NCBI RefSeq assembly: GCF_000027125.1
Contig: NC_017626.1
DNA: 64,000 nucleotides
DNA from: Escherichia coli 042
GTDB lineage: Bacteria; Pseudomonadota; Gammaproteobacteria; Enterobacterales; Enterobacteriaceae
Reading direction: 5' to 3' (one strand)
Positions 23,400 through 45,854 of this stretch are shown one piece after another; position 1 is the stretch's first letter, and each line of letters starts with the position of its first letter. Both the position numbers and the translations under genes were made by a program. Below the pieces are notes generated by a model that saw only the letters and a program-made list of their open reading frames with translations, was not told the DNA's origin and did no database searches.

Positions 23400-24653
23400 A
23401 TGACATTCTCCCTTTTTGGTGACAAATTTACCCGCCACTCCGGCATTACGCTGCTGATGGAAGATCTGAACGACGGTTTACGCACGCCTGGCGCGATTAT
23501 GCTCGGCGGCGGTAATCCGGCGCAGATCCCGGAAATGCAGGACTACTTCCAGACGCTACTGACCGACATGCTGGAAAGTGGCAAAGCGACTGATGCACTG
23601 TGCAATTACGACGGTCCACAGGGGAAAACGGAGCTACTCACACTGCTTGCCGGAATGCTGCGCGAGAAGTTGGGTTGGGATATCGAACCACAGAATATTG
23701 CACTAACAAACGGCAGCCAGAGCGCGTTTTTCTACTTATTTAATCTGTTTGCCGGACGCCGTGCCGATGGTCGGGTCAAAAAAGTGCTGTTCCCGCTGGC
23801 ACCGGAATACATTGGCTACGCTGACGCCGGACTGGAAGAAGATCTGTTTGTCTCTGCGCGTCCGAATATTGAACTGCTGCCGGAAGGCCAGTTTAAATAC
23901 CACGTCGATTTTGAGCATCTGCATATTGGCGAAGAAACCGGGATGATTTGCGTCTCCCGGCCGACGAATCCAACAGGCAATGTGATTACTGACGAAGAGT
24001 TGCTGAAGCTTGACGCGCTGGCGAATCAACATGGCATTCCGCTGGTGATTGATAACGCTTATGGCGTCCCGTTCCCGGGTATCATCTTCAGCGAAGCGCG
24101 CCCGCTGTGGAATCCGAATATCGTACTGTGCATGAGTCTTTCCAAGCTGGGGCTACCTGGCTCCCGCTGCGGCATTATCATCGCCAATGAAAAAATCATC
24201 ACCGCCATCACCAATATGAACGGCATTATCAGCCTGGCACCTGGCGGTATTGGTCCGGCGATGATGTGTGAAATGATTAAGCGTAACGATCTGCTGCGCC
24301 TGTCTGAAACAGTCATCAAACCGTTTTACTACCAGCGTGTTCAGGAAACTATCGCTATCATTCGCCGCTATTTACCGGAAGATCGCTGCCTGATTCATAA
24401 ACCCGAAGGAGCCATTTTCCTCTGGCTATGGTTTAAGGATTTGCCAATTACGACCGAGCAGCTCTACCAGCGCCTGAAAGCACGGGGCGTGCTGATGGTG
24501 CCGGGGCACAACTTCTTCCCAGGGCTGGATAAACCGTGGCCACATACACATCAATGTATGCGCATGAACTACGTGCCGGAGCCGGAGAAAATTGAGGCGG
24601 GTGTGAAGATTCTGGCAGAAGAGATAGAAAGAGCCTGGGCTGAAAGTCACTAA
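23400..24653 (+). CDS. avtA: Valine--pyruvate aminotransferase
   Basis: 417 aa from MTFSLFGDKFTRHSGITLLMEDLNDG; track ORF over-extended by 35 codons. Confidence 0.95.
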   Translation: MTFSLFGDKFTRHSGITLLMEDLNDGLRTPGAIMLGGGNPAQIPEMQDYFQTLLTDMLESGKATDALCNYDGPQGKTELLTLLAGMLREKLGWDIEPQNIALTNGSQSAFFYLFNLFAGRRADGRVKKVLFPLAPEYIGYADAGLEEDLFVSARPNIELLPEGQFKYHVDFEHLHIGEETGMICVSRPTNPTGNVITDEELLKLDALANQHGIPLVIDNAYGVPFPGIIFSEARPLWNPNIVLCMSLSKLGLPGSRCGIIIANEKIITAITNMNGIISLAPGGIGPAMMCEMIKRNDLLRLSETVIKPFYYQRVQETIAIIRRYLPEDRCLIHKPEGAIFLWLWFKDLPITTEQLYQRLKARGVLMVPGHNFFPGLDKPWPHTHQCMRMNYVPEPEKIEAGVKILAEEIERAWAESH

Positions 24654-24658
24654 AAATT

Positions 24659-24772
24659 GCCTGATGCGCTACGCTTATCAGGCCTACATGATTTCTGCAA
24701 TATATTGAATTTGGTAGAATTTGTAGGCCGGATAAGGCGTTTTAGCCGCATCCGGCATAAACAAAGCGCACT
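24659..24772. repeat. REP/BIME cluster
   Basis: gcctgatgcgctacgcttatcaggcctaca and gtaggccggataaggcgtt...gccgcatccggca REP-type palindromes. Confidence 0.75.
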
Positions 24773-24804
24773 ATCCCTGCGTTGAGAAACGCCGGAAAAA
24801 CGTT

Positions 24805-25278
24805 TCAAACAGGCTGCTGCCGTAGCCGATGTCGCTGCACTTTCTCGACATCCATGCACTGCAACGCCTTTGTCGGGCAGGCTTCAACACAGGCCGGTCC
24901 CGTCGCCCGATGCCAGCACAGATCGCACTTAATCGCCCTCGCCTTTTTGCGCGAAGAAACGACCTCCATCGCACCAAACGGGCAAGCCAGCATACAGCTT
25001 TTACAGCCAATGCAACGTGATTGTTCAACGAAAATATGCCCATGTTCGCGGCTTATCGCGTCAACAGGGCAGACATTCGCGCACGGTGCATCTTCACACT
25101 GATGGCAGGCTACTGCCGTGGTCCAGCTGTGGTCTTTAATAACACGAATACGGGAAATAAACTCGTCTGGTGACAACGCAGCGCAATCCTGATTTTCCTG
25201 ATGCGACACTGCGCAAGCCACTTCACAGGTACGGCAACCGATACATTTCGTCGCATCTGCAATAATAAACCGGTTCAT
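24805..25278 (-). CDS. ysaA: 4Fe-4S ferredoxin-type protein YsaA
   Basis: ~157 aa with multiple CxxCxxCxxxCP iron-sulfur motifs; start Met uncertain by 2 codons. Confidence 0.88.
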   Translation of the reverse strand: MNRFIIADATKCIGCRTCEVACAVSHQENQDCAALSPDEFISRIRVIKDHSWTTAVACHQCEDAPCANVCPVDAISREHGHIFVEQSRCIGCKSCMLACPFGAMEVVSSRKKARAIKCDLCWHRATGPACVEACPTKALQCMDVEKVQRHRLRQQPV

Positions 25279-25379
25279 GATCACTCCTTTGCACTAAAAC
25301 AGCAGAGTGCCAGAGAGCGCGTCTCTACTGCTTTGATCCAACGAAGGAAATGTTAAAGTTTTGGCACTTGTCCAAAGGG

Positions 25380-26228
25380 TTATGTGATCGCGCCCTGGTC
25401 GTCCCTGACAGTAAATCCCAGTTCATTAGAAATAGCCTGCGCGGTTTCACGCAGTGGTTTCAGGAGATTTTTCTCCCCCACCTGTTTCAGACGTGATGTC
25501 GAAAGAGAAATCGACACGGCGTACGGCACCCGCCCATGAATATCAAACACCGGAACAGCAATACAGGAGACGCCGAGTTCGTTTTCTTCTCTGTCCATCG
25601 CCGCTCCGCTTTCACGAATGTGCGCCAGTTCGTCGAACATCGCGGGGAGCTCGGTAATGGTATTGCGGGTTAACGGCTGGATCTCATGCTGATGGCTTTC
25701 CCAGTATGACTTCACGTAGTCCGGGTGACCAAACGCCATGTAGATCTTGCCCATTGCGGAACAGTAGAGCGGCATATGCTGGCCTATATAGGCACGGGTT
25801 CGCAGCATCCCGGTTGTGGGTTCCAGCTTATAAATCAAAATAGCGTGATCGTCTTCGCGGCTCGAGAAGTTAATGGTTTCACCAGTGGCGATGTTCAGTG
25901 CCTCAAGATGCGGAGCGGCGATATGAATGATATTCAGCGAAGACAGCGCCTTCTGCCCGACGGCAATAAATTTGGTAGTCAGGCGGTAACTCCCTGCGGC
26001 GGGCGCGGTGGTCACATAGCCGCAGGATTGTAATCCCTGCAATAAGCGATGGACGGTACTCTTATTTAAACCAGCCAGCTCCGAAAGATGCGCCAACGGA
26101 CAACCGTTTGGATAGTTGCTCAAAATCTCAATCAGCATCAACCCGCGAAACAGACTCTGGCTTCCGGCTGGACGCTCTTTTTCCTGCGCCATCTCGTTCT
26201 CTTTTTTTCCCATCACTTCTTTCCCCAT
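25380..26228 (-). CDS. yiaJ: IclR-family transcriptional repressor YiaJ (regulator of yiaK-S operon)
   Basis: 282 aa, N-terminal HTH (LAHLSELAGLNKSTVHRLLQGL) and IclR effector domain; divergent from yiaK. Confidence 0.93.
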   Translation of the reverse strand: MGKEVMGKKENEMAQEKERPAGSQSLFRGLMLIEILSNYPNGCPLAHLSELAGLNKSTVHRLLQGLQSCGYVTTAPAAGSYRLTTKFIAVGQKALSSLNIIHIAAPHLEALNIATGETINFSSREDDHAILIYKLEPTTGMLRTRAYIGQHMPLYCSAMGKIYMAFGHPDYVKSYWESHQHEIQPLTRNTITELPAMFDELAHIRESGAAMDREENELGVSCIAVPVFDIHGRVPYAVSISLSTSRLKQVGEKNLLKPLRETAQAISNELGFTVRDDQGAIT

Positions 26229-26430
26229 TTTGTCGCGTCCTGATGGTAGCGCAAAGTGTGTCGTAGTTCACGATCTCGACAGATAATTTATAACCACTTG
26301 ATTTTTAAGTTTTTTGAAATTCATCAATCAGATTGCTTTGTTAAAAAGCGATCGATATATTTGAAATCAGATTTCGCATATTGAAATTTTATGCCAAAAA
26401 AGCGATCAAAAAAAAACAAGGAAGCCAGGG

Positions 26431-27429
26431 ATGAAAGTGACATTTGAGCAGTTAAAAGCAGCCTTTAATCGAGTCTTAATTTCACGCGGCGTTGACAGCG
26501 AAACGGCTGATGCCTGTGCCGAGATGTTCGCCCGCACCACCGAATCCGGCGTTTATTCTCACGGCGTCAACCGTTTCCCTCGTTTCATTCAACAACTGGA
26601 AAACGGCGATATCATTCCCAATGCCCAACCCAAACGTATAACCAGCCTCGGCGCAATTGAACAGTGGGACGCCCAGCGTTCGATCGGTAACCTGACAGCG
26701 AAAAAGATGATGGATCGCGCCATTGAACTGGCTGCCGATCACGGTATTGGTCTGGTGGCACTACGTAATGCCAACCACTGGATGCGCGGCGGCAGCTACG
26801 GCTGGCAGGCGGCGGAAAAAGGCTATATTGGCATTTGCTGGACCAACTCCATCGCCGTAATGCCGCCGTGGGGCGCAAAAGAGTGTCGTATCGGCACCAA
26901 CCCGCTGATCGTCGCCATTCCTTCTACCCCAATCACCATGGTCGATATGTCGATGTCGATGTTCTCTTACGGCATGTTAGAAGTTAACCGTCTGGCAGGC
27001 CGTCAGCTCCCGGTCGATGGTGGCTTTGATGATGAGGGCAATTTGACCAAAGAACCTGGCGTTATCGAGAAGAATCGCCGCATTTTGCCGATGGGCTACT
27101 GGAAAGGTTCTGGCATGTCGATTGTGCTGGATATGATCGCCACTCTCCTTTCTGACGGCGCATCGGTTGCCGAAGTCACCCAGGACAACAGCGACGAATA
27201 CGGCATTTCACAAATTTTTATTGCCATTGAAGTAGATAAGCTTATCGACGGCCCCACCCGCGATGCCAAGCTGCAACGCATCATGGATTACGTTACTACC
27301 GCTGAACGCGCTGACGAAAACCAGGCCATCCGCTTACCCGGCCACGAATTTACTACCCTGCTGGCCGAAAACCGCCGTAACGGCATCACCGTTGATGACA
27401 GCGTGTGGGCCAAAATCCAGGCGTTATGA
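26431..27429 (+). CDS. yiaK: 2,3-diketo-L-gulonate reductase
   Basis: 332 aa, Ldh_2 family malate/L-lactate dehydrogenase-like; first gene of yiaK-S operon. Confidence 0.93.
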
Positions 27430-27437
27430 GGAGATAA

Positions 27438-27908
<471 letters not shown>

Positions 27909-28025
27909 TCGAATAATCGTCTACGCCAGAACGCCTGGGTAATGTTATTGCTCTAACTATATTAATAATTTAGGTTGCTGCACATGCAACTTGAATTATG
28001 ACAGACATAGCCTCAAGGAATAGCT

Positions 28026-28499
28026 ATGAAAAAAATACTTGAAGCAATACTGGCGATTAATCTCGCCGTACTTTCCTGTATTGTGTTTATAAACATTATT
28101 TTAAGATATGGTTTTCAGACAAGCATTTTATCTGTAGATGAATTGTCACGTTATTTATTTGTCTGGTTAACATTTATTGGCGCGATTGTGGCTTTTATGG
28201 ATAACGCCCACGTTCAGGTCACCTTTCTGGTGGAGAAACTCTCCCCCGCATGGCAGCGACGAGTCGCTCTGGTTACCCATTCCTTAATCTTATTTATTTG
28301 TGGCGCACTGGCCTGGGGCGCAACGCTAAAAACAATTCAGGACTGGAGCGATTATTCACCGATCCTCGGTTTGCCCATCGGCCTGATGTATGCCGCTTGT
28401 CTGCCCACCAGCCTCGTTATCGCATTCTTTGAACTGCGTCATTTATATCAACTCATCACGCGTAGCAATTCTCTAACGTCGCCACCGCAAGGAGCTTAA
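28026..28499 (+). CDS. yiaM: TRAP transporter small permease subunit
   Basis: 157 aa, four predicted TM helices; precedes large permease. Confidence 0.92.
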
Positions 28500-28501
28500 T
28501 C

Positions 28502-29779
28502 ATGGCTGTGCTGATTTTTCTGGGCTGTCTGTTGGGTGGTATTGCTATCGGTTTGCCTATTGCCTGGGCACTGTTGTTGTGCGGAGCGGCGTTAATGTTC
28601 TGGCTGGAGATGTTTGATGTCCAGATCATGGCACAAACGCTGGTGAACGGAGCCGACAGCTTCTCCCTGCTGGCGATCCCGTTCTTTGTGCTGGCGGGTG
28701 AAATCATGAATGCGGGCGGCTTGTCGAAACGCATTGTTGACCTGCCGATGAAACTGGTGGGGCATAAGCCTGGTGGGCTTGGCTACGTCGGCGTGCTGGC
28801 GGCAATGATTATGGCGAGCCTTTCCGGTTCTGCCGTTGCAGATACCGCCGCCGTTGCCGCACTACTGGTGCCGATGATGCGCAGCGCCAACTACCCGGTC
28901 AACCGGGCTGCGGGGCTGATTGCCTCTGGCGGCATTATCGCGCCAATTATTCCCCCTTCCATTCCGTTTATTATCTTCGGCGTTTCCAGCGGATTATCCA
29001 TCAGTAAGCTGTTTATGGCGGGCATTGCCCCAGGCATTATGATGGGCGCAACGCTGATGCTTACCTGGTGGTGGCAGGCCAGTCGTCTTAACTTACCCCG
29101 CCAGCAAAAAGCGACGATGCAGGAAATCTGGCACTCTTTTGTCTCCGGTATCTGGGCGCTGTTTCTTCCGGTCATCATTATTGGGGGTTTTCGCTCCGGT
29201 CTGTTTACCCCTACCGAAGCCGGGGCCGTTGCTGCTTTCTATGCGCTGTTTGTCGCCACAGTTATTTACCGTGAAATGACCTTCGCCACACTTTGGCATG
29301 TGCTCATTGGCGCAGCGAAAACGACCTCAGTGGTGATGTTTCTGGTGGCCTCGGCACAAGTTTCCGCCTGGCTGATCACCATTGCTGAACTGCCGATGAT
29401 GGTTTCTGATTTACTGCAACCGCTGGTCGATTCACCGCGTCTGCTGTTTATCATCATTATGGTGGCTATCCTGATTGTCGGCATGGTCATGGATTTAACG
29501 CCGACGGTATTAATTCTTACCCCGGTATTAATGCCTTTAGTTAAAGAGGCAGGAATCGATCCGATTTATTTCGGTGTCATGTTTATCATTAACTGCTCAA
29601 TCGGCTTAATTACACCGCCTATCGGTAATGTGCTTAACGTTATTTCAGGGGTGGCAAAACTCAAATTCGATGATGCAGTCAGAGGCGTTTTCCCTTACGT
29701 CCTGGTTTTATATTCATTATTAGTCGTATTTGTTTTTATTCCCGATCTCATCATCCTCCCTTTGAAATGGATTAATTAA
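28502..29779 (+). CDS. yiaN: TRAP transporter large permease subunit (DctM family)
   Basis: 425 aa polytopic membrane protein. Confidence 0.92.
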   Translation: MAVLIFLGCLLGGIAIGLPIAWALLLCGAALMFWLEMFDVQIMAQTLVNGADSFSLLAIPFFVLAGEIMNAGGLSKRIVDLPMKLVGHKPGGLGYVGVLAAMIMASLSGSAVADTAAVAALLVPMMRSANYPVNRAAGLIASGGIIAPIIPPSIPFIIFGVSSGLSISKLFMAGIAPGIMMGATLMLTWWWQASRLNLPRQQKATMQEIWHSFVSGIWALFLPVIIIGGFRSGLFTPTEAGAVAAFYALFVATVIYREMTFATLWHVLIGAAKTTSVVMFLVASAQVSAWLITIAELPMMVSDLLQPLVDSPRLLFIIIMVAILIVGMVMDLTPTVLILTPVLMPLVKEAGIDPIYFGVMFIINCSIGLITPPIGNVLNVISGVAKLKFDDAVRGVFPYVLVLYSLLVVFVFIPDLIILPLKWIN

Positions 29780-29791
29780 AAGGAAAATATT

Positions 29792-30778
29792 ATGAAATTA
29801 CGCTCTGTAACCTACGCATTATTCATTGCTGGCCTGACTGCATTCAGCACATCTTCTCTGGCGGCACAATCTTTACGTTTCGGTTATGAAACATCACAAA
29901 CCGACTCGCAACATATTGCGGCGAAAAAATCCAATGAATTATTACAGGAAAAAACCAAAGGCGAACTGAAATTAAAATTGTTTCCGGATAGCACCCTCGG
30001 TAATGCGCAGGCGATGATCAGCGGCGTGCGTGGCGGCACTATTGATATGGAGATGTCTGGCTCTAACAACTTTACGGGGCTCTCGCCCGTCATCAACCTG
30101 CTCGACGTCCCTTTCCTGTTCCGCGATACCGCTCACGCGCATAAAACGCTCGACGGCAAAGTCGGTGATGATCTGAAAGCCTCACTTGAAGGTAAGGGAC
30201 TGAAAGTACTGGCCTACTGGGAAAACGGCTGGCGCGATGTCACCAACTCGCGCGCACCGGTTAAAACCCCCGCCGACCTGAAAGGGCTGAAAATTCGCAC
30301 CAACAATAGCCCGATGAATATCGCCGCATTCAAAGTCTTTGGCGCTAACCCGATCCCGATGCCGTTTGCCGAAGTCTATACCGGGCTGGAAACGCGCACT
30401 ATCGACGCTCAGGAACACCCGATCAACGTCGTCTGGTCAGCAAAATTTTTCGAAGTACAGAAGTACCTTTCTCTGACGCACCACGCCTATTCGCCACTTC
30501 TGGTGGTGATCAACAAAGCGAAGTTTGACGGCTTAACCCCGGAGTTCCAGCAGGCGCTGATCTCATCTGCGCAGGAAGCGGGTAACTACCAGCGCAAACT
30601 GGTTGCCGAAGATCAGCAAAAAATCATCGACGGCATGAAAGAAGCGGGCGTGGAAGTCATCACCGATCTCGACCGCAAAGCCTTTAGCGACGCACTGGGG
30701 AATCAGGTTCGCGACATGTTTGTTAAAGATGTGCCGCAGGGAGCTGATCTGCTGAAAGCCGTGGATGAGGTGCAATAA
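29792..30778 (+). CDS. yiaO: TRAP transporter periplasmic solute-binding protein (DctP family)
   Basis: 328 aa with signal peptide MKLRSVTYALFIAGLTAFSTSSLA. Confidence 0.92.
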   Translation: MKLRSVTYALFIAGLTAFSTSSLAAQSLRFGYETSQTDSQHIAAKKSNELLQEKTKGELKLKLFPDSTLGNAQAMISGVRGGTIDMEMSGSNNFTGLSPVINLLDVPFLFRDTAHAHKTLDGKVGDDLKASLEGKGLKVLAYWENGWRDVTNSRAPVKTPADLKGLKIRTNNSPMNIAAFKVFGANPIPMPFAEVYTGLETRTIDAQEHPINVVWSAKFFEVQKYLSLTHHAYSPLLVVINKAKFDGLTPEFQQALISSAQEAGNYQRKLVAEDQQKIIDGMKEAGVEVITDLDRKAFSDALGNQVRDMFVKDVPQGADLLKAVDEVQ

Positions 30779-30781
30779 ACC

Positions 30782-32278
30782 ATGACGCAATACTGGCTGG
30801 GGTTAGATTGTGGCGGTAGCTGGCTGAAAGCCGGGCTGTATGACCGCGAAGGCCGGGAGGCAGGCGTACAACGCCTGCCGCTGTGCGCATTAAGCCCGCA
30901 GCCAGGCTGGGCAGAGCGCGATATGGCAGAACTGTGGCAATGCTGCATGGCTGTCATTCGCCCCCTGCTTACTCATTCTGGTGTTAGCGGGGAACAAATA
31001 GTCGGTATCGGCATCTCCGCACAGGGAAAGGGCTTGTTTTTGCTGGATAAAAACGACAAGCCGCTCGGTAACGCCATTTTGTCCTCGGATCGCCGGGCGA
31101 TGGAAATCGTTCGTCGCTGGCAGGAAGATGGCATCCCGGAAAAACTCTACCCGCTGACGCGACAAACCTTGTGGACCGGGCATCCGGTGTCGCTGTTACG
31201 CTGGCTGAAAGAGCACGAACCGGAACGCTACGCGCAAATTGGCTGCGTGATGATGACGCACGACTACCTGCGCTGGTGTTTAACCGGCGTCAAAGGTTGC
31301 GAAGAGAGCAATATTTCTGAGTCCAATCTCTACAACATGAGTCTTGGGGAATATGACCCGTGCCTCACCGACTGGCTGGGGATCGCTGAAATCAACCACG
31401 CCCTGCCGCCTGTTGTCGGATCTGCCGAAATCTGCGGGGAGATCACCGCTCAGACAGCCGCACTGACCGGTCTGAAAGCGGGTACGCCCATTGTCGGCGG
31501 CCTGTTTGATGTGGTTTCCACCGCACTCTGTGCCGGGATCGAAGACGAATTTACCCTTAATGCGGTGATGGGCACCTGGGCGGTGACCAGCGGCATAACC
31601 CGTGGTTTACGTGACGGTGAAGCGCATCCGTATGTCTATGGTCGCTACGTTAACGATGGTCAATTTATCGTTCACGAAGCCAGCCCTACCTCTTCCGGCA
31701 ACCTCGAATGGTTTACCGCACAGTGGGGAGAAATCTCGTTTGATGAGATTAACCAGGCCGTTGCCAGCTTGCCGAAGGCCGGGGGCGATCTCTTTTTCCT
31801 GCCGTTCCTGTACGGCAGCAACGCCGGACTCGAGATGACTAGCGGTTTCTACGGGATGCAGGCCATTCACACCCGCGCACACCTGTTGCAGGCCATTTAT
31901 GAAGGCGTAGTGTTCAGCCATATGACCCATCTCAACCGGATGCGCGAACGTTTTACTGATGTGCACACCCTGCGCGTCACTGGCGGCCCGGCGCATTCCG
32001 ATGTCTGGATGCAAATGCTGGCGGACGTCAGCGGGCTGCGTATCGAACTGCCGCAGGTGGAAGAAACCGGCTGCTTTGGTGCGGCACTTGCCGCCCGCGT
32101 CGGCACCGGAGTTTATCGCGATTTCAGCGAAGCCCAACGTGATTTACAGCACCCGGTACGCACCCTGCTGCCGGATATGACCGCCCATCAGCTTTACCAA
32201 CAAAAATACCAACGCTATCAGCATCTCATTGCCGCACTTCAGGGCTTTCACGCCCGCATCAAGGAGCACACATTATGA
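30782..32278 (+). CDS. lyxK: L-xylulose/3-keto-L-gulonate kinase
   Basis: 498 aa FGGY-family kinase MTQYWLGLDCGGSWLKAGLYD... Confidence 0.93.
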   Translation: MTQYWLGLDCGGSWLKAGLYDREGREAGVQRLPLCALSPQPGWAERDMAELWQCCMAVIRPLLTHSGVSGEQIVGIGISAQGKGLFLLDKNDKPLGNAILSSDRRAMEIVRRWQEDGIPEKLYPLTRQTLWTGHPVSLLRWLKEHEPERYAQIGCVMMTHDYLRWCLTGVKGCEESNISESNLYNMSLGEYDPCLTDWLGIAEINHALPPVVGSAEICGEITAQTAALTGLKAGTPIVGGLFDVVSTALCAGIEDEFTLNAVMGTWAVTSGITRGLRDGEAHPYVYGRYVNDGQFIVHEASPTSSGNLEWFTAQWGEISFDEINQAVASLPKAGGDLFFLPFLYGSNAGLEMTSGFYGMQAIHTRAHLLQAIYEGVVFSHMTHLNRMRERFTDVHTLRVTGGPAHSDVWMQMLADVSGLRIELPQVEETGCFGAALAARVGTGVYRDFSEAQRDLQHPVRTLLPDMTAHQLYQQKYQRYQHLIAALQGFHARIKEHTL

Positions 32279-32937
32279 GCCGACCACTTCTGCAACTGGC
32301 CCTCGACCACTCATCACTTGAAGACGCACAGCGCGACGTGATGCTGTTAAAAGACAGCGTCGATATCGTCGAAGCGGGCACCATTCTCTGTTTAAACGAA
32401 GGGCTTGGCGCAGTGAAAGCCTTGCGCGAACAGTGCCCGAACAAAATCATCGTCGCTGACTGGAAGGTCGCCGATGCCGGTGAAACGCTCGCGCAACAGG
32501 CGTTTGGCGCAGGCGCTAACTGGATGACCATCATCTGCGCCGCACCGCTCGCGACGGTAGAAAAAGGTCACACAATGGCGCAACGCTGCGGTGGTGAAAT
32601 CCAGATCGAGCTGTTCGGTAACTGGACGCTGGACGACGCCCGCGACTGGCATCGTATTGGCGTGCGGCAGGCGATTTATCATCGTGGTCGTGATGCACAG
32701 GCCAGCGGGCAACAGTGGGGCGAAGCCGATCTGGCACGCATGAAGGCGCTTTCCGATATCGGCCTTGAGCTTTCCATTACCGGCGGTATTACTCCTGCTG
32801 ATCTGCCACTGTTTAAAGATATTCGCGTGAAAGCGTTTATTGCCGGGCGAGCACTGGCAGGCGCGGCAAATCCGGCACAGGTGGCAGGCGATTTCCATGC
32901 GCAAATCGACGCTATCTGGGGAGGCGCGCGTGCGTAA
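32275..32937 (+). CDS. sgbH: 3-keto-L-gulonate-6-phosphate decarboxylase
   Basis: 220 aa OMP-decarboxylase-like; overlaps lyxK stop by 4 bp. Confidence 0.93.
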
Positions 32938-33790
32938 TCATCCGTTAGGGATTTATGAAAAAGCGCTGGCGAAAGATCTCTCCTGGCCGGAGCGGCTGGT
33001 GCTGGCAAAAAGCTGCGGCTTTGATTTTGTCGAAATGTCGGTGGATGAAACTGACGAGCGTCTGTCACGCCTTGACTGGAGCGCCACACAAAGGACTTCG
33101 CTGGTTGCCGCGATGATCGAAACGGGTGTTGCCATTCCGTCAATGTGCCTGTCCGCACATCGTCGCTTTCCCTTTGGCAGCCGGGACAAGGCGGTGCGCG
33201 AACGGGCGCGGGAAATCATGAGTAAAGCGATTCGCCTGGCGCGCGATCTCGGCATTCGCACCATTCAACTGGCGGGTTATGACGTCTATTACGAAGACCA
33301 CGACGAAGGCACCCAGCAACGTTTTGCTGAAGGGCTGGCGTGGGCGGTCGAACAGGCGGCGGCATCACAAGTAATGCTGGCGGTGGAGATTATGGATACC
33401 GCGTTTATGAACTCCATCAGCAAATGGAAAAAGTGGGACGAGATGCTCGCCTCGCCGTGGTTCACCGTCTACCCGGACGTCGGCAACCTCAGCGCCTGGG
33501 GCAATGATGTTCCCGCCGAACTGAAACTGGGCATTGACCGTATTGCCGCAATCCATCTGAAAGACACCCTGCCAGTCACCGGGCAAAGTCCCGGACAGTT
33601 CCGTGATGTGCCGTTTGGCGAAGGCTGCGTCGATTTCGTTGGCATCTTCAAAACGCTGCATGAACTGAACTATCGCGGTTCTTTCCTGATTGAGATGTGG
33701 ACCGAAAAAGCCAAAGAGCCGGTGCTGGAGATTATTCAGGCGCGGCGCTGGATTGAAGCGCGTATGCAGGAGGCTGGATTTATATGTTAG
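32930..33790 (+). CDS. sgbU: L-xylulose-5-phosphate 3-epimerase
   Basis: 286 aa from GTG 32930 ([23 protein letters not shown]...); overlaps sgbH stop by 8 bp; track ORF over-extended upstream. Confidence 0.9.
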
Positions 33791-34479
33791 AGCAACTGAA
33801 AGCCGACGTGCTGGCGGCAAATCTGGCACTTCCCGCTCACCATCTGGTGACGTTCACCTGGGGCAATGTCAGCGCGGTAGACGAAACGCGGCAATGGATG
33901 GTAATCAAACCTTCCGGCGTCGAGTACGACGTGATGACCGCCGACGATATGGTGGTGGTTGAGATAGCCAGCGGCAAGGTGGTGGAAGGTAGCAAAAAGC
34001 CCTCGTCCGATACGCCAACGCATCTGGCGCTTTACCGTCGCTATGCCGAAATCGGTGGCATTGTGCATAACCACTCGCGCCATGCCACCATCTGGTCACA
34101 GGCCGGGCTGGATCTCCCCGCCTGGGGCACCACGCACGCTGATTATTTCTATGGCGCAATCCCCTGCACGCGACAGATGACCGCAGAGGAGATCAACGGC
34201 GAGTATGAATACCAGACCGGCGAAGTGATCATTGAAACTTTCGAAGAACGCGGCAGGAGTCCGGCGCAAATCCCGGCGGTGCTGGTGCATTCTCACGGCC
34301 CGTTCGCATGGGGTGAAAACGCCGCCGATGCGGTGCATAATGCCGTAGTACTGGAAGAATGCGCCTATATGGGCCTGTTCTCGCGCCAGCTTGCGCCACA
34401 GCTCCCTGCGATGCAAAACGAACTGTTGGATAAGCACTACCTGCGTAAGCATGGGGCCAATGCCTATTACGGGCAGTAA
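33784..34479 (+). CDS. sgbE: L-ribulose-5-phosphate 4-epimerase
   Basis: 231 aa class II aldolase/adducin fold, [30 protein letters not shown]... Confidence 0.93.
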
Positions 34480-34510
34480 TCCCTCACGCCGGGGCTTCAT
34501 TGCCCCGGCA

Positions 34511-35326
34511 CTACGAATTGATATGTTCCTTGCTGTAACGCCGCTTCCACGCTGCTGGCGTTAAACCAGTGTGTTTGCGAAAAATCTGCCGGAAATAGCC
34601 AACGTCATTAAACCCGCACAACGCCGCCACTTCCGTGAGCGATCGCGCTTCGCTAATTAACAGCTTTTCGGCTTCGCGCACTCGCTGGCGATGGATTGCT
34701 TCTGTTAACGTCAGATGAAACACCCGCCGATAGACGCGCCCAAGATAATCGGCATTGCAGTACAGCTCGCGGGCTAAAAGCGCCGTGGAAAGCGGGCGAT
34801 GATATTGCGTGCGGATCAGTTTCTGCGCTTTCCAGGCAAGCGTGGTACCTGCGGCATCGGCCTGTTCATCAAGACGCGCGTCACGGGTGAGTTGCTGCAA
34901 AATCAGCAGCACAATAAACTCCAGCGCCGGAGTGCGCTGATGCTTTTCCTGTTCGCTTAAGAACTGGCGAAACAGGGCCACCAGCGCCTGCGGATCGGCA
35001 ACCTTCGTTTGTTGCGGCACGCTAAGATGAGTGAGCCAGCGCGGGTCGCTATCCGGCGCTTTAACCTCAAAATGCAGCCAGTAAAATTTGAGATCGGCGG
35101 GAAAATCCTCTACCCCAACATGCTGTCGGTTCGGCCAGAGTAATAAACTCTCTCCCGCATCGACCAGAAATATCCGCTCTTCTTCCTGAATCGCTAATCG
35201 ACCTTTTTCGACAAAGATAATTTCCCATGACTCCAGCCGCCTTGCCGGATGCCTCCCTACGCCACGGGAAATAAATAATCCACCATTTTGCACTTTAATC
35301 GGTAACGTCATGGATAATTCGAGCAT
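34511..35326 (-). CDS. AraC-family transcriptional regulator (N-terminal cupin-like sensor, C-terminal double HTH)
   Basis: 271 aa; C-terminal AraC signature region (...DYLGRVYRRVFHLTLTEAIHRQRVREAEKLL...FNDVGYFRQIFRKHTGLTPAAWKRR). Not part of the recalled K-12 gene order between sgbE and yiaT. Confidence 0.85.
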   Translation of the reverse strand: MLELSMTLPIKVQNGGLFISRGVGRHPARRLESWEIIFVEKGRLAIQEEERIFLVDAGESLLLWPNRQHVGVEDFPADLKFYWLHFEVKAPDSDPRWLTHLSVPQQTKVADPQALVALFRQFLSEQEKHQRTPALEFIVLLILQQLTRDARLDEQADAAGTTLAWKAQKLIRTQYHRPLSTALLARELYCNADYLGRVYRRVFHLTLTEAIHRQRVREAEKLLISEARSLTEVAALCGFNDVGYFRQIFRKHTGLTPAAWKRRYSKEHINS

Positions 35327-35348
35327 TGATATGTAATTTCCCGCTTAT

Positions 35349-35402
35349 TCATTAATGATTAAACACATTACCTTTTGATTATTAATCAAAAACATTAATT
35401 TC
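35349..35402. promoter_or_regulatory. Palindromic AT-rich sites in the divergent AraC / transporter promoter region
   Basis: TCATTAATGA (35349-35358) and TTGATTA-T-TAATCAA (35376-35390) palindromes plus further ATTAAT repeats; seen directly. Confidence 0.4.
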
Positions 35403-35551
35403 ACCTGATCCAATTCACACTTTTAAATTCAGGTCGGAATCGTCACCTTTTTTTACTCTTTTCTCGCCTTGTTGATATTCCCGTTCACGGCAGAATTAAT
35501 CATGTCATTGCAATAAAACTAAAAATTGCACCCTATTCACGAGGAATATCT

Positions 35552-36952
35552 ATGACCTCTACACCGATTACTACCGCTGATATCGCTAAAGGTAAAATTG
35601 ACGATGCGTTATCTGTACGGGAAAAAATAGGCTACGGCCTGGGTGACGCAGGCGGCACCGTAATAACTTGCCTGATCATGAACTTTCTCACCTTTTTCTA
35701 CACCGACGTTTTTGGCTTAACTCCGGCGCTGGTCGGCACGCTGTTTATTGCACTGCGCGTGTTTGATGCCATCTCCGACCCGGTGATGGGCGTCATTGCC
35801 GACCGGACGCAAAGTCACTGGGGGCGCTTTCGTCCGTGGCAGTTATGGATTGCCATTCCCATCGGCATTATCGGCATCCTGACGTTCACCGTGCCAGATG
35901 CCAGCATGGGAGTAAAAATCGCCTGGGCGTTCGGCACTTACCTGCTCCTTTCAGTCGGTTATACCGCCATCAACGTGCCGTACTGCGCGCTGATCAACAC
36001 CATGACCACCCGCCACAATGAAGTGATCTCCTGCCAGTCCTGGCGATTCGTTCTCTGCGGTGTAGCGGGATTTCTGGTTTCGGTAGGCTTACCGTGGATG
36101 GTGGATCTCTTCGGTCAGGGTAATGCCGCGCGCGGCTATCAACTGGGCGTCGGCGTGCTGTGCGCCATCGCTGTGGTGATGTTCCTGTGCTGTTTCTTCT
36201 GGGTTCGTGAACGGGTACCACTCTCCACAATGGGGAAATTTACCCTGCGCGAACATCTTGCCGGGCTGCGAAACAACGACCAACTGCTGCTGATGCTGGT
36301 CATGTCTTTCCTGCTGATTAACGTCTTTAATATTCGCGGCGGTGGGTATATGTACTTCATTACCTACGTCTTACAAGGCAGTACGGGCTACACGTCGCTG
36401 TTCTTCACTATGGTCACCTTCGCCTCCATTATCGGCTCGGTGATTGTCAGCCCGTTAACGCGACGTTTCGATACCGTCAAAATTTATTACTACACCAACC
36501 TGCTCCTCGCTTCACTGGCGGTGTTGATGTGGTTCCTGCCCTCCGGCCCGGCTTATCAAACGCTGTGGCTGGCGGTGATCCTCGGTAATGGCGTGATTCT
36601 TGGCTTCACATTGCCACTGCACTTCTCATTGATGGCCTTTGCCGATGACTACGGCGAGTGGAAAACCCGCGTACGTTCTTCCGGCATGAACTTCGCCTTC
36701 AATCTGTTTTTCATCAAACTGGCCTGGGCCTCCAGCGCCGGGATCATCAGCCTGCTGTTTATTTTTGTCGCCTACCAGCCAGGCGTAGAAAACCAGACCG
36801 CCAGTTCGCTTGGCGGGATCGCGGCGATGGAAACATTGCTGCCTGCGCTGTTCCACCTGCTGCTGGCGATGGCGATCCGCTTTTGCAAACTCAATAACCC
36901 TATGATGTCACGCATTGCTAGCGACCTGCGTCAGCGTCATGTACAGCCTTAA
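35552..36952 (+). CDS. GPH-family (glycoside-pentoside-hexuronide) sugar:cation symporter
   Basis: 466 aa, 12-TM MFS-like; N-terminal GYGLGD...G and [18 protein letters not shown] motifs typical of MelB/YicJ/YihO-type GPH transporters. Confidence 0.85.
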
Positions 36953-36962
36953 GGAGCACAAG

Positions 36963-38933
36963 ATGAACATTTCGGAAGTCGATCTGCATAAACTGACGGT
37001 CAGCGATCCGTTCCTCGGTCAGTACCAACAACTGGTCCGCGACGTGGTGATTCCTTATCAGTGGGATGCCTTGAACGATCGTATCCCAGAAGCGGAACCC
37101 AGCCATGCGATTGAAAACTTTCGCATTGCCGCAGGACTGCAAGACGGTGAATTTTACGGGATGGTGTTTCAGGACAGCGACGTCGCCAAATGGCTGGAAG
37201 CGGTAGCCTGGTCGCTGTGCCAGAAGCCGGATGCCGAACTGGAAAAAACCGCTGACGAGGTAATCGAACTGGTCGCTTCCGCCCAGTGCGAAGATGGCTA
37301 TCTCAATACTTACTTTACGGTAAAAGCGCCCGAAGAACGCTGGAGCAATCTGGCGGAGTGTCATGAACTTTACTGCGCCGGTCATCTGATTGAAGCCGGA
37401 GTCGCCTTCTTCCAGGCCACGGGCAAGCGGCGCTTGCTGGAAGTGGTTTGCCGTCTGGCCGATCATATCGACAGCGTATTTGGTCCAGGTGAAAGTAAGT
37501 TACACGGTTATCCTGGTCACCCGGAAATTGAACTGGCACTAATGCGCCTGTATGAAGTGACCGAAGAGCCGCGCTACCTGGCGCTGGCGAACTATTTTGT
37601 CGAACAGCGTGGTGCGCAACCGCACTATTACGACCAGGAATATGAAAAGCGCGGGCAGACCTCGCACTGGCACACCTACGGCCCGGCGTGGATGGTGAAA
37701 GATAAAGCCTACAGCCAGGCGCATTTACCCATCGCACAGCAACAAACCGCCATCGGACATGCAGTACGCTTTGTATATCTGATGACTGGCGTCGCACATC
37801 TGGCGCGTTTAAGTCACGATGAAAGCAAGCGTCAGGATTGCCTGCGGCTGTGGAACAATATGGCCCAGCGTCAGTTATATATTACCGGCGGCATTGGCTC
37901 ACAAAGCAGCGGCGAAGCGTTCAGCAGCGATTACGATCTGCCGAATGACACGGTATACGCCGAAAGCTGTGCTTCCATCGGCCTGATGATGTTCGCCCGG
38001 CGAATGCTGGAAATGGAAGGCGACAGTCAATATGCCGATGTGATGGAGCGCGCACTGTACAACACCGTGCTCGGCGGCATGGCGCTGGATGGCAAACATT
38101 TCTTCTATGTGAATCCGCTGGAAGTGCATCCAAAAACGTTAAAATTCAACCATATCTACGATCACGTTAAGCCGATCCGCCAGCGTTGGTTTGGTTGCGC
38201 TTGTTGTCCGCCAAATATCGCCCGCGTGCTAACCTCGATTGGTCATTATCTCTACACGCCGCGTGAAGATGCGTTGTATATCAACATCTACGCAGGAAAC
38301 AGCATGGAAGTGCCGGTAGAAAATGGCACGCTGCGTCTGCGGGTTAGCGGAAACTATCCGTGGCAGGAGCAGGTGACGATTGCGGTTGAATCGCCCCAGC
38401 CGGTGCGTCATACGCTGGCTTTACGTCTGCCGGACTGGTGCACACAGCCGCAGATCATATTGAATGGGGAAGAGGTCGGGCAGGATATTCGTAAAGGGTA
38501 TTTGCACATTACCCGCGAATGGCAGGAGGGCGATACGCTGAATCTGACTTTGCCGATGCCGGTACGCCGCGTTTACGGTAACCCTCAGGTGCGTCACGTC
38601 GCCGGAAAAGTGGCGATTCAGCGCGGCCCGCTGGTGTATTGCCTGGAACAGGCCGACAACGGCGAGTCACTGCATAACCTGTGGCTGCCCGCCGATGCGC
38701 CATTTACGACATTTGAAGGCAAGGGATTGTTCCGCCATAAGATCTTAATCCAGGCTCCGGGTTACCGGTATGAACAGAGCAATCCAGAGCAGCAACCGCT
38801 GTGGCATTACGACAGCGCGCCAGCCAAACGCCAGCCGCAAACCCTGACCTTTATCCCGTGGTTTAGCTGGGCCAACCGGGGTGAAGGCGAAATGCGGATC
38901 TGGGTGAATGAGGAAAAGCATTGCCATCCGTAG
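36963..38933 (+). CDS. Glycoside hydrolase family 127 (DUF1680) protein, putative beta-L-arabinofuranosidase-like
   Basis: 656 aa from ATG 36963 with AAGGAG SD 7 bp upstream; Cys-rich segment WFGCACCPPNIARV resembles the recalled zinc/cysteine active-site region of HypBA1-type GH127 enzymes. Family assignment from memory. Confidence 0.7.
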   Translation: MNISEVDLHKLTVSDPFLGQYQQLVRDVVIPYQWDALNDRIPEAEPSHAIENFRIAAGLQDGEFYGMVFQDSDVAKWLEAVAWSLCQKPDAELEKTADEVIELVASAQCEDGYLNTYFTVKAPEERWSNLAECHELYCAGHLIEAGVAFFQATGKRRLLEVVCRLADHIDSVFGPGESKLHGYPGHPEIELALMRLYEVTEEPRYLALANYFVEQRGAQPHYYDQEYEKRGQTSHWHTYGPAWMVKDKAYSQAHLPIAQQQTAIGHAVRFVYLMTGVAHLARLSHDESKRQDCLRLWNNMAQRQLYITGGIGSQSSGEAFSSDYDLPNDTVYAESCASIGLMMFARRMLEMEGDSQYADVMERALYNTVLGGMALDGKHFFYVNPLEVHPKTLKFNHIYDHVKPIRQRWFGCACCPPNIARVLTSIGHYLYTPREDALYINIYAGNSMEVPVENGTLRLRVSGNYPWQEQVTIAVESPQPVRHTLALRLPDWCTQPQIILNGEEVGQDIRKGYLHITREWQEGDTLNLTLPMPVRRVYGNPQVRHVAGKVAIQRGPLVYCLEQADNGESLHNLWLPADAPFTTFEGKGLFRHKILIQAPGYRYEQSNPEQQPLWHYDSAPAKRQPQTLTFIPWFSWANRGEGEMRIWVNEEKHCHP

Positions 38934-39050
38934 GTTGGATAAGGCACTCGCGCCGCATCCAACGTAAGGAGCACATTGCCTGATGCGACGCTTAACACGT
39001 CTTATCAGGCATACAAGTCGGTGCGAGAGTGTAGGCCAGCCGCACCGACA
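38934..39050. repeat. REP/BIME palindromic elements
   Basis: cgccgcatcc...tgcctgatgcgacgcttaacacgtcttatcaggcatac... REP-type palindromes between the GH127 gene and yiaT. Confidence 0.65.
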
Positions 39051-39062
39051 TCCACCGGTGAA

Positions 39063-39803
39063 TTAAAAACGCCAGCTCACGCCGGTGACAAAGGTAAAAC
39101 TCTCATTACGATCAATCATCGGGCTGTCGGTAACCTCTTCCGGCAGCTCGCTGTATCCTGCGCTCGCCATCAATACGACGTGCTCTCCTATCGGGTATTT
39201 TGCCGTCAGGCTGACATAGGGCACCCAGGCATCCTGCGCGGAATAACTTGCCAGACCGCTACGACGGGACTCACTCTCTGAAATGCCATAGTAATAGTCA
39301 CTGAAATTCTCGTCATAATAGAGAACGCCCAGCGCAGGTGTCAGCGACAGGCGACCTATCTGCATTTTGTGGAATACCGATAGCTCCCCCACCCAGCCGT
39401 TGCTGTTATCCAGAACGTCCGCAGCCGCAGAGGCTTTCACGGTTCCCCAACGCTCGTGGTGATACCAGGCAACCCCCGCCATAGCCGTACTATCACGCTT
39501 ATCAAGCTGTTGCATGGCATAATCGTCATTATCGGTAGGGTCAAATTCCAGCGGCATCCAGGATGCGGTCAGGCTAAGTTCATTTTTTTCACTTTGCGAC
39601 AGAATAAAACCTAACGTGGTCTGACGAACATAAAAAGTATCACCTTCATAGCTAATCAGCGGAATTGCCTTTGTATTTTCATTATAACCGCGATAAGGCG
39701 ATTCATTATAAGCCGCACCAGCACCAATGGATAATTCAGAAGCAGTTGCGCTTGCCATAAAAGGCAACGCAAATAACGCCACAATATTGCGGTTAATTAA
39801 CAT
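39063..39803 (-). CDS. yiaT: Outer membrane protein YiaT (MipA/OmpV family)
   Basis: 246 aa with signal peptide MLINRNIVALFALPFMASATA and C-terminal aromatic residue (…SWRF). Confidence 0.9.
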   Translation of the reverse strand: MLINRNIVALFALPFMASATASELSIGAGAAYNESPYRGYNENTKAIPLISYEGDTFYVRQTTLGFILSQSEKNELSLTASWMPLEFDPTDNDDYAMQQLDKRDSTAMAGVAWYHHERWGTVKASAAADVLDNSNGWVGELSVFHKMQIGRLSLTPALGVLYYDENFSDYYYGISESESRRSGLASYSAQDAWVPYVSLTAKYPIGEHVVLMASAGYSELPEEVTDSPMIDRNESFTFVTGVSWRF

Positions 39804-39926
39804 GTCCGGTATTCCATTTTAAAATAAGATAAAAAAGAGTCGGCATAGTAATGCTTACAATTTCTCCGGTGCAAGATTCATATTTATATAGTAATATATA
39901 AAATTATATATAATTGGGCTGTTGCG

Positions 39927-40901
39927 ATGACAAAATTACAACTTAAGTACCGGGAGTTAAAAATTATCTCGGTAATCGCTGCCAGTGAAAATATCAGCCA
40001 TGCCGCGACTGTACTTGGCATCGCACAGGCCAACGTCAGCAAATATCTTGCTGATTTTGAATCAAAAGTGGGTTTAAAAGTTTTTGACCGAACCACCCGA
40101 CAACTGATGCTCACACCTTTTGGCACCGCGCTATTACCGTACATCAACGACATGCTGGACAGAAACGAGCAGCTTAATAATTTTATTGCAGATTATAAGC
40201 ATGAGAAACGTGGTCGGGTCACCATCTACGCCCCAACCGGCATAATTACCTATTTATCCAAACATGTAATCGATAAAATTAAAGATATCGGTGATATCAC
40301 CTTATCGCTAAAAACCTGCAATCTTGAGCGTAATGCCTTTTATGAAGGCGTCGAATTTCCTGATGATTGTGATGTTTTAATCAGCTATGCCCCACCAAAA
40401 GATGAATCGCTGGTTGCCAGTTTTATTACCCAATATGCCGTAACCGCTTATGCCAGCCAGCGCTATCTTGAGAAACATCCCATTAGCCGTCCTGACGAAC
40501 TCGAACATCACTCCTGTATTTTGATCGACTCGATGATGATCGACGACGCGAATATCTGGCGCTTCAACGTCGCCGGGAGTAAAGAGGTGCGGGATTATCG
40601 CGTGAAGGGAAATGACGTTTGCGACAACACGCAATCGGCGCTGGAGCTGGCACGAAATCACCTGGGGATTGTGTTTGCGCCAGACAAAAGTGTGCAGAGC
40701 GATCTGCAAGACGGCACGCTGGTGCCCTGCTTTCAGCAACCCTATGAATGGTGGCTGGATCTGGTGGCTATCTTCCGTAAACGGGAATACCAGCCCTGGC
40801 GGGTCCAGTATGTGCTGGATGAAATGCTGCGTGAAATTCGCCACCAGCTTGCTCAGTCGCAGCAACTGCGGCCTGAACAAGCGGCGGAAAGCGAAGATTA
40901 A
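39927..40901 (+). CDS. yiaU: LysR-family transcriptional regulator YiaU
   Basis: 324 aa, N-terminal LysR HTH (…[23 protein letters not shown]…). Confidence 0.9.
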
Positions 40902-42034: not shown

Positions 42035-42039
42035 AAGTA

Positions 42040-42363: not shown

Positions 42364-42476
42364 ATTTCCCTCAAAGAATATAAAAAAGAACAATTAACGC
42401 ATATTATGAAATGCCATGATGCAGTGCAATTTCCTTATTTATATAACGACATATTGTTTTTTATATACTTTCTGAA

Positions 42477-42689: not shown

Positions 42690-42779
42690 ACTCCTGGCAA
42701 AACACGCCCCAGAAACGCACTTCTGTTGGCGTAGTCTGGGTTATTGCGCACGTAGGTTTAAAACGTAAATTGTAACAAC

Positions 42780-45849: not shown

Positions 45850-45854
45850 GTGCT

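Follow-up and report, generated by a model that had tools for sequence, protein, structure and literature searches.

The genes lyxK, sgbH, sgbU and sgbE of Escherichia coli 042 follow one another so closely that each overlaps the next, and this raises two questions: where does sgbU begin, and do the overlaps reflect coupled translation of the enzymes? Both were addressed in a window of 64,000 nucleotides (contig NC_017626.1), to which all positions refer. An earlier note, made from the letters alone, had read overlaps of 4, 8 and 7 bp, placed the sgbU start at GTG 32930 and proposed translational coupling. Taken as a whole, we read the block as the distal half of the known yiaKLMNO-lyxK-sgbHUE operon, with standard gene boundaries, an sgbU start at GTG 32930 and partly coupled translation, a reading to which we assign a probability of roughly 0.85.

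Gene boundaries and operon context

On the plus strand, lyxK (L-xylulokinase; open reading frame list and translation) extends from 30782 to 32278, with an ATG start, a TGA stop and 498 aa. It is followed on the same strand by sgbH (32275 to 32937, ATG to TAA, 220 aa; RefSeq CDS), sgbU (L-ribulose/L-xylulose-5-phosphate 3-epimerase; 32930 to 33790, GTG to TAG, 286 aa) and sgbE (L-ribulose-5-phosphate 4-epimerase; 33784 to 34479, ATG to TAA, 231 aa). Recomputed from the sequence, the plus-strand overlaps are the 4 bp ATGA between lyxK and sgbH (32275 to 32278), the 8 bp GTGCGTAA between sgbH and sgbU (32930 to 32937) and the 7 bp ATGTTAG between sgbU and sgbE (33784 to 33790), and the three lengths given in the earlier note proved correct to the base. 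RefSeq/PGAP annotates the four CDS with identical relative coordinates in strain NRZ14408, which is 100% identical to the window over 32200 to 33850, and the same boundaries are found in three further E. coli alleles of 92-96% identity, four strains in total. For K-12, distances of +3, -4, -8 and -7 have been published (Suppl. Table S2 of PMC10666635). The operon is well known, and these boundaries and overlaps are its standard annotation, tabulated before; in that sense they are ordinary.

Profile searches gave FGGY-kinase matches for the lyxK product and full-length matches for SgbH (NCBIfam NF009831, 447.6 bits against a cut-off of 294; profile 1-220 on residues 1-220) and for SgbE (NF009002, 507.5 bits against 386; profile 1-231 on residues 1-231), the latter also matching TIGR00760 (440.7 bits against 389.1). 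The window contains yiaN, yiaO and lyxK reading frames that match the operon, and the RefSeq annotation of NRZ14408 gives the order yiaK-L-M-N-O-lyxK-sgbH-sgbU-sgbE with a divergent yiaJ. NRZ14408 is approximately 98.5% identical to the window between 24771 and 38916; the whole window aligns with it in blocks only, with rearrangements. The gene order is also that of the YiaJ/PlaR-repressed K-12 operon yiaKLMNO-lyxK-sgbHUE (b3575-b3583), where SgbH, SgbU and SgbE likewise have 220, 286 and 231 aa and sgbU shares the GTG start. The operon status of yiaK-S goes back to Ibanez et al. 2000, as cited in PMC6958661. The allele in the window is nevertheless divergent, with around 96% nucleotide identity to K-12, and only 4 of the 4,856 genomes that match reach 99% identity or more. 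Past the end of sgbE, the window has an intact AraC-family regulator, an MFS transporter and a GH127 glycosidase, which in K-12 are reduced to pseudogene remnants.

Between 30500 and 34800, the counts of promoter-like and terminator-like sites were at or below shuffle expectation, which argues for no internal punctuation in this stretch. An Rfam scan of 24000 to 36000 gave no match in the block, its sole match being the ES036 sRNA at 24680 to 24722. In the space between sgbE and the convergent AraC-family gene, the sequence has a GC-rich inverted repeat, GCCGGGGC-TTCATT-GCCCCGGC (34488 to 34509, no strand assigned), which is possibly the end of the operon transcript; the terminator scan gave no call there, because the repeat has no T run.

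The start codon of sgbU

The mechanical open reading frame of sgbU runs from TTG 32840 to 33790 and encodes 316 aa. The claims that it over-extends the gene by 30 codons and that the start is GTG 32930 are both borne out, the latter by annotation, profile alignment, Shine-Dalgarno (SD) strength, polymorphism pattern and cross-species conservation. The product is a full-length member of the SgbU/UlaE family (L-ribulose-5-phosphate 3-epimerase), with scores far over the cut-offs: TIGR00542 gives 520.7 bits against 272.15, with profile positions 1-279 on residues 32-316 of the 316-aa frame, and NF009689 gives 507.1 bits against 200, with positions 2-285 on residues 32-315. As position 2 of NF009689 falls on residue 32, position 1 corresponds to the GTG codon. 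The alignment with the UlaE structure chain 3CQH begins at residue 33 of the extended frame, and the GTG start puts the N-terminus a few residues ahead of the conserved PLGIYEKAL motif, without a long leader. Regarding ribosome binding, the SD duplex energy is -11.3 kcal/mol at GTG 32930, -5.9 kcal/mol at ATG 32897 and -0.1 kcal/mol at TTG 32840.

For comparison with other species we used 57 loci with LyxK and SgbH homologues upstream of an sgbU homologue; these come from related species, so they are not independent events. Starts were assigned by extending each tblastn alignment to the closest start codon in frame, rather than from independent annotation, and the resulting picks were ATG in 54 loci and GTG in three, nearly all at the homologous position, a few of them (for instance Hafnia L019) being probably mis-assigned. 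Outside Escherichia, the codon at the position homologous to the GTG is ATG.

No other start codon lies between the upstream in-frame stop and TTG 32840, which opens the longest frame. However, this TTG has no SD, residues 1-30 of the 316-aa frame have no profile coverage, and the homologous -30 position carries a start in only eight of the 57 loci. The 90 nt between TTG and GTG (32840 to 32929, plus strand) are an open stretch in the sgbU frame, lying inside sgbH, which evolves like sgbH coding sequence and is not sgbU coding sequence. Across four alleles, 11 of its 16 variable sites are sgbH third codon positions, and 15 of the 16 lie in codons with an amino-acid change if read in the sgbU frame; past the GTG, sgbU third positions account for 71 of the 85 variable sites. 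Among the 57 species, the upstream open length in the sgbU frame ranges from 1 to 137 codons, and a collection of 15 billion proteins contained no exact copy of the 316-aa protein. The comparative data effectively refute the TTG start, whose probability is negligible.

The second candidate is an in-frame ATG 11 codons before the GTG (32897 to 32899, plus strand), a rival start in some older annotations. It would give a protein of 297 aa, as in the original CFT073 annotation, or both the 297-aa and the 286-aa forms could be made. ATG is the better start codon, this one is kept in all four E. coli alleles compared, a weak SD-like AGG precedes it, and 297-aa database entries exist (CFT073 AAN82841.1 and WP_001232358.1). 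On the other hand, a homologous ATG occurs in only 10 of the 57 species loci. In the same-frame group it is present exactly where a histidine of SgbH is encoded by CAT (10 of 20) and absent where the codon is CAC (10 of 20), which points to ATG 32897 being a by-product of the CAT codon in sgbH. The 11 additional residues are not conserved and are changed by every polymorphism found there, the curated profiles and the solved UlaE structure begin at, or just past, the GTG position, and in eight of the 57 species loci an in-frame stop lies at most 8 codons upstream of the homologous start. The GTG form is also the current RefSeq choice, the exact 286-aa protein being found on 722 contigs against two for the 297-aa form. 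Initiation at ATG 32897, alone or beside the GTG, is highly improbable.

The comparative sequence evidence strongly supports translation of sgbU from GTG 32930. The 297-aa and 316-aa forms are artefacts of choosing an upstream start within sgbH, and the 286 aa of the current RefSeq entry are right. Past this annotation hygiene, the confirmation of the RefSeq start matters little.

Junction conservation and possible translational coupling

The three downstream starts have SD sites inside the preceding gene, all on the plus strand. For sgbH, AAGGAG (32261 to 32266) lies in the last lyxK codons, 8 nt before the ATG; its duplex with the 16S 3' end has an energy of -7.7 kcal/mol, in the top 1.7% of window positions, and the motif is found in 44 of 55 species loci with the 8-nt spacing fixed. 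The sgbU site, GGGGAGG (32918 to 32924), lies 5 nt upstream of the GTG and is supplied by the codons for Trp-Gly-Gly in the SgbH tail. At -11.3 kcal/mol it is the strongest among the candidate sgbU starts and in the top 0.1% of window positions, and its GGGGA(G) core is kept in 52 of the 57 loci. For sgbE, AGGAGG (33768 to 33773) lies in the last sgbU codons, 10 nt before the ATG (-10.3 kcal/mol, top 0.3%); of 46 species loci, 37 have AAGGAGG and 40 have GGAG at a fixed distance from the ATG.

The junctions themselves are also conserved. Of 55 sgb-type loci in other species, 44 share the 4-bp lyxK/sgbH overlap, and sgbU and sgbE overlap in all 46 species loci, by 7 bp in 44 of them. The sgbH/sgbU junction lies within -5 to +8 in 56 of the 57 species loci: 20 have the 8-bp overlap (Escherichia, Klebsiella, Citrobacter, Raoultella, Salmonella diarizonae, Yokenella and others), and the remaining ones are at -2, +1 or +4. 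Across genera the sgbU start codon and SD have stayed fixed, with a variable SgbH tail of 1-4 residues ending at varying stops (-2, +1 or +4 nt). In the Escherichia/Klebsiella/Citrobacter group, the spacer between TGGGGA and the start is one base shorter, 7 nt instead of 8, so that sgbH ends at a TAA within codons 2-3 of sgbU and overlaps it by 8 nt (+8 in the junction series). Whole codons separate the stops at -2, +1 and +4, and the series is a tidy example of overlap drift with a fixed start and SD. Judged from these sequences, the exact sgbH/sgbU geometry is not itself selected.

Two more specific ideas were considered. The invariant ATGTTAG of the sgbU/sgbE junction could have been kept to preserve the sgbU stop, an idea that is weakened because the identical ATGTTAGAA opens araD, which does not overlap; the TTA-GAR codons that are the source of the sgbU TAG stop are present there too. 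A designed coupling hairpin at the sgbU SD and start was rejected. By prediction, this region is largely paired (P unpaired 0.16), but the 120-nt folds at the four starts do not exceed dinucleotide shuffles in stability (z = -0.98, +0.62, -0.33 and +0.74), so that the pairing is no evidence for such a hairpin.

Together, the tight junctions and the internal SD motifs conserved across genera fit translational coupling, which is plausible for this block. Each downstream start (sgbH, sgbU and sgbE) lies 4-8 nt before the stop of the preceding gene, with a strong SD in that gene's last codons. In the proposed mechanism, a ribosome ending the upstream gene could be held by the nearby SD and re-initiate on the adjoining start, melting local mRNA structure. 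Re-initiation at the adjoining starts would partly couple the output of SgbH, SgbU and SgbE, three consecutive pathway enzymes, and we infer, with moderate confidence, that termination-reinitiation of this kind is the likeliest mode of translation. Some SD-driven de novo initiation probably occurs besides. The overlaps of 4, 8 and 7 nt fall inside the class of -8 to +6 that PMC10666635 defines. Reinitiation efficiency was reported to drop by 80-100% at 38 nt (PMC10666635), and termination-reinitiation was found in four of five tested E. coli pairs with overlaps of this size (PMC6728339). Our literature search found no paper combining sgbU with ribosome profiling.

Alternatively, the overlaps could have arisen neutrally, as the operon was compacted and stop codons drifted, with sgbH, sgbU and sgbE each initiated de novo at its own strong SD and not depending to any meaningful degree on translation of the preceding gene. 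All three SD sites are in the top 2% of window positions, which makes coupling-independent initiation possible, and the sgbH stop wanders between -2, +1, +4 and +8 across genera around a fixed sgbU SD and start. The TTA-GAR codons of the non-overlapping araD, the +9 nt gap of the ulaD-ulaE junction and the lack of a known complex among the three products point the same way, as does the fifth tested E. coli pair, bioB-bioF, which overlaps and yet is uncoupled (PMC6728339). However, the junctions are never far apart (56 of 57 for sgbH/sgbU within -5 to +8, and 46 of 46 overlapping for sgbU/sgbE), coupling was found in most of the overlapping pairs tested and falls off steeply with distance, and the arrangement, in which a strong SD and a start codon lie close to a terminating ribosome, is the textbook setting for reinitiation. 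We regard fully independent initiation as a real possibility, short of an even chance.

Among genes for heteromeric complex subunits, overlaps are enriched (PMC10666635), and the tight junctions might reflect a co-translationally assembled SgbH-SgbU-SgbE complex that channels phosphorylated keto-sugar intermediates; in a smaller variant, the Escherichia GTG and longer SD would down-tune SgbU. The three proteins are listed as 'CMPLX not', with no known heteromeric complex (Suppl. Table S2 of PMC10666635), and we consider these readings very unlikely. If coupling by termination-reinitiation holds, the block would be one more enzyme-only (non-complex) operon among the known cases.

Comparison with known overlapping genes

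The closest comparison is with ulaD-ulaE-ulaF of the L-ascorbate (ula) operon, which are paralogous and encode the same three enzyme families in the order of sgbH-sgbU-sgbE. UlaE, whose structure has been solved (3CQH), is approximately 60% identical to SgbU and starts with ATG, whereas SgbU here starts with GTG. In K-12, ulaD and ulaE are separated by 9 nt and ulaE and ulaF overlap by 1 nt, whereas the corresponding sgb junctions overlap by 8 and 7 nt; these ula distances (+9 and -1) are the published values, the automatic picker having taken a TTG over the adjoining ATG in many ula-type loci, with a 12-nt gap. The 9-nt gap implies that these three enzymes can do without an overlap. The complex and down-tuning readings found no specific support, and the ula paralogues manage with that gap.

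Regarding other K-12 genes, 707 of 2,987 co-directional pairs (24%) are spaced at -8 to +6 nt, with overlaps of -4, -1 and -8 occurring more often than any other configuration (PMC10666635). The mur/fts cluster has a run of junctions of -4, -7, -1, -4 and -8. The overlaps of murF-mraY (-7), murC-ddlB (-8) and kefF-kefC (-8) equal those of the sgb junctions in length, although the genes are unrelated, and such overlaps in ordinary operons indicate that 7 and 8 nt are routine. The lyxK-sgbHUE junctions are real and conserved, but their pattern is not unusual.

As models for coupling, the pairs hyfH-hyfI, ydbH-ynbE, menD-menH and astD-astB (Huber et al. 2019, 2023) resemble the sgb genes in being co-directional, with a short overlap and an SD that lies within the upstream gene. 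In the 2023 work, distance dependence was measured for three pairs, which natively overlap by 1 nt and whose coupling was measured, whereas the sgb overlaps are of 4, 8 and 7 nt and known from sequence. The menD-menH pair, like the sgb block, encodes consecutive enzymes of one pathway.

Gene identities, boundaries and the sgbU start

The sequence between positions 30600 and 34700 was read, its ORFs were listed and all boundaries were recomputed by script. The plus strand carries lyxK (30782-32278; ATG start, TGA stop, 498 aa), sgbH (32275-32937; ATG, TAA, 220 aa), sgbU (32930-33790; GTG, TAG, 286 aa) and sgbE (33784-34479; ATG, TAA, 231 aa). Consecutive genes overlap by 4 bp (ATGA, 32275-32278), 8 bp (GTGCGTAA, 32930-32937) and 7 bp (ATGTTAG, 33784-33790), exactly the lengths reported in an earlier note. 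Its remark that the sgbU ORF is over-extended by 30 codons also holds: the longest mechanical ORF opens at TTG 32840, 5' of the GTG, and has 316 aa. SgbU is an L-ribulose-5-phosphate 3-epimerase (NCBIfam TIGR00542, 520.7 bits against a curated cut-off of 272) and SgbE an L-ribulose-5-phosphate 4-epimerase (NF009002, 507.5 bits against 386). RefSeq labels the genes lyxK, ulaD (sgbH), sgbU and araD (sgbE), with CDS boundaries equal to the window coordinates in one strain that is identical here and in three alleles at 92-96% identity. Because yiaK-L-M-N-O and the divergent yiaJ lie 5' of lyxK, these names and boundaries identify the block as the distal portion of an operon already known, yiaKLMNO-lyxK-sgbHUE, that is under YiaJ/PlaR repression (PMC6958661).

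Six independent lines of evidence (profile, Shine-Dalgarno (SD) sequence, polymorphism, cross-species comparison, rival ATG and database counts) agree that sgbU starts at GTG 32930. The earlier note had chosen this codon, as do the current RefSeq, the K-12 annotation and a published table. Positions 2-285 of the 286 in profile NF009689 align to residues 32-315 of the 316-aa ORF, which puts profile position 1 on the GTG codon; the TIGR00542 alignment begins at residue 32 and that of the solved UlaE structure 3CQH at residue 33. The SD GGGGAGG, 5 nt before the GTG, forms a duplex of -11.3 kcal/mol with the 16S rRNA 3' end, a strength reached by just 0.1% of the window positions sampled. TTG 32840 gives -0.1 and ATG 32897, also in frame, gives -5.9. 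Among four alleles, 16 sites vary within the 90-nt extension: 11 occupy third positions in the sgbH frame, hence second positions in the sgbU frame, and 15 fall in codons that would encode a different residue if SgbU were extended. In sgbU proper, starting with the GTG, third positions account for 71 of the 85 variable sites.

Scanning a single genome for each species with a degenerate pattern gave 120 motif-bearing loci, 57 with LyxK and SgbH homologues directly upstream (sgb-type loci). In almost all 57, the sgbU start chosen by an automatic picker falls at the homologous position; the codon chosen is ATG in 54 and GTG in three (E. coli, E. albertii and a Hafnia assignment that is doubtful). 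The possible upstream extension of the frame ranges from 1 to 137 codons, and eight loci have an in-frame stop at most 8 codons upstream of the start. Contig counts are 722 for the exact 286-aa SgbU, two for the 297-aa form and zero for the 316-aa form. That 297-aa form, opening at ATG 32897-32899, is the only serious rival, and it still stands in public databases beside the 286-aa form (original CFT073 annotation AAN82841.1; WP_001232358.1). However, across the 20 loci whose frame relation is that of the window, this ATG occurs only, and always, where a conserved SgbH His is encoded by CAT (10 loci), and is missing with CAC (10 loci), so it is a synonymous accident of sgbH; moreover, the 11 additional residues are not conserved. 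The 297-aa variant was rejected.

Among sgb-type loci, the doubtful Hafnia case aside, a GTG sgbU start was seen only in Escherichia (E. coli and E. albertii), other genera having ATG. Both Escherichia loci (window 32918-32932; comparison loci L006 and L020) carry the SD in its longest version, GGGGAGG. The two features probably reflect a single evolutionary event, and their pairing is thus anecdotal.

Strain variation and neighbouring genes

By megablast, the 32200-33850 block is present in 4,856 of 5,426 complete E. coli genomes and without a match in 570, some with deletions. The window allele is rare, with 4 of the 4,856 matching genomes at least 99% identical; K-12 derivatives are about 96% identical. 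NZ_CP074815 matches the first 358 nt only, ending shortly inside sgbH, where a gene of the MipA/OmpV family, to which yiaT belongs, adjoins. Strain NRZ14408 (NZ_CP158426.1) is 100% identical to the window over the sgb block and about 98.5% elsewhere, without collinearity: window blocks 38917-42847 and 44560-45900 have no match, and the arrangement of the RHS/IS region differs. This difference suggests recombination around the locus. The NRZ14408 alignment also omits a 431-aa Fic/DOC-domain ORF (44554-45849, minus strand; Pfam PF02661, E = 3e-19) between aldB and yiaY.

The region downstream of sgbE (34511-38933) appears to be a variable spot. It holds an intact AraC-family regulator (34511-35326, minus strand), an MFS_2 sugar transporter (35552-36952, plus) and a GH127 beta-L-arabinofuranosidase-like gene (about 36915-38933, plus). 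The K-12 derivative ET12567 has only pseudogene fragments in their place, and in strain PA45B aldB lies directly 3' of sgbE. Where sgbE converges with the AraC-family gene, the DNA between them contains an inverted repeat rich in GC, GCCGGGGC-TTCATT-GCCCCGGC (34488-34509), which may be a bidirectional transcript end; lacking a T run, it was not called by the terminator scan. A match to the sRNA family ES036 (CssrF) at 24680-24722 (minus strand) scores 38.9 bits, just above the Rfam gathering score of 37.6.

Gene junctions and translational coupling

Across sgb-type loci (overlaps positive, gaps negative, in nt), the ATGA overlap of lyxK/sgbH is found in 44 of 55 and the 7-bp sgbU/sgbE overlap, ATGTTAG or ATGCTAG, in 44 of 46. 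The sgbH/sgbU junction is +8 in 20 loci, -2 in 15, +1 in 13 and +4 in six. The +8 group comprises Escherichia, Klebsiella, Citrobacter, Raoultella, Salmonella diarizonae, Yokenella and one locus each of Tolumonas and Affinibrenneria; most -2 loci come from Enterobacter and Lelliottia. Fixed here are the sgbU start, a TGGGGA(G) motif supplied by Trp-Gly codons in the conserved IWG tail of SgbH, and the near-constant spacing between start and motif, while the sgbH stop varies in position behind a variable tail of 1-4 residues. States -2, +1 and +4 differ by whole codons. The TGGGGA-to-start spacer is 7 nt in the +8 group and 8 nt otherwise; the 7-nt spacer shifts the frame relation, and sgbH therefore extends to a TAA inside sgbU codons 2-3 (CGT AAY). 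The SD motifs of sgbH (AAGGAG) and sgbE (AAGGAGG) are also conserved at fixed spacing: GGAG precedes the sgbH ATG by 8 nt in 44 of 55 loci, and the sgbE ATG by 7 nt in 40 of 46. The sgbE 5' end, ATGTTAGAA (33784-33792), is the same as that of K-12 araD (locus L127, 5880-5889, minus strand), whose upstream neighbour araA ends 284 nt away. Since it is common to sgbE and the non-overlapping araD, we infer that the TTA-GAR supplying the TAG stop of sgbU is ancestral to the AraD family and no device evolved for overlap.

The SDs of the downstream genes are strong, conserved and embedded in the preceding genes. No promoter-like or terminator-like site inside the block scored above chance, and no junction window folded better than shuffled sequence. 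Independent SD-driven initiation of sgbH, sgbU and sgbE, with the overlaps a product of neutral drift, is the chief alternative to coupling and seems possible rather than probable; it is favoured by SD strength, by an sgbH stop that shifts position, by the gap at ulaD-ulaE and by the bioB-bioF precedent of overlap without coupling. Termination-reinitiation, for its part, has been demonstrated for four of five overlapping E. coli pairs, dropping by 80-100% with the stop relocated to a distance of 38 nt, and with an SD contribution in four of the five (PMC6728339; PMC10666635). At least partial coupling of sgbH, sgbU and sgbE to the preceding gene by this route would be a reasonable reading and the likeliest one, to which we give a probability of about 0.6.

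The junction pattern is unremarkable and had already been described for this known operon. The small additions made here are the rejection of the 297-aa variant, the description of the sgbH/sgbU overlap-length shift among genera, and the GTG at the sgbU start, peculiar to Escherichia together with the longest SD. In the published K-12 distances, where overlaps are negative and gaps positive (the reverse of our cross-species convention), the three values that occur most often between co-directional genes are -4, -1 and -8, and 707 of 2,987 such pairs (24%) fall in the -8 to +6 class (PMC10666635). Its Supplementary Table S2 lists yiaO-lyxK at +3, lyxK-sgbH at -4, sgbH-sgbU at -8 and sgbU-sgbE at -7, all marked as non-complex-forming. 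Other K-12 operons have similar runs (murF-mraY -7, murC-ddlB -8; Supplementary Table S2, PMC10666635). In the paralogous ula operon, ulaD-ulaE is at +9 and ulaE-ulaF at -1.
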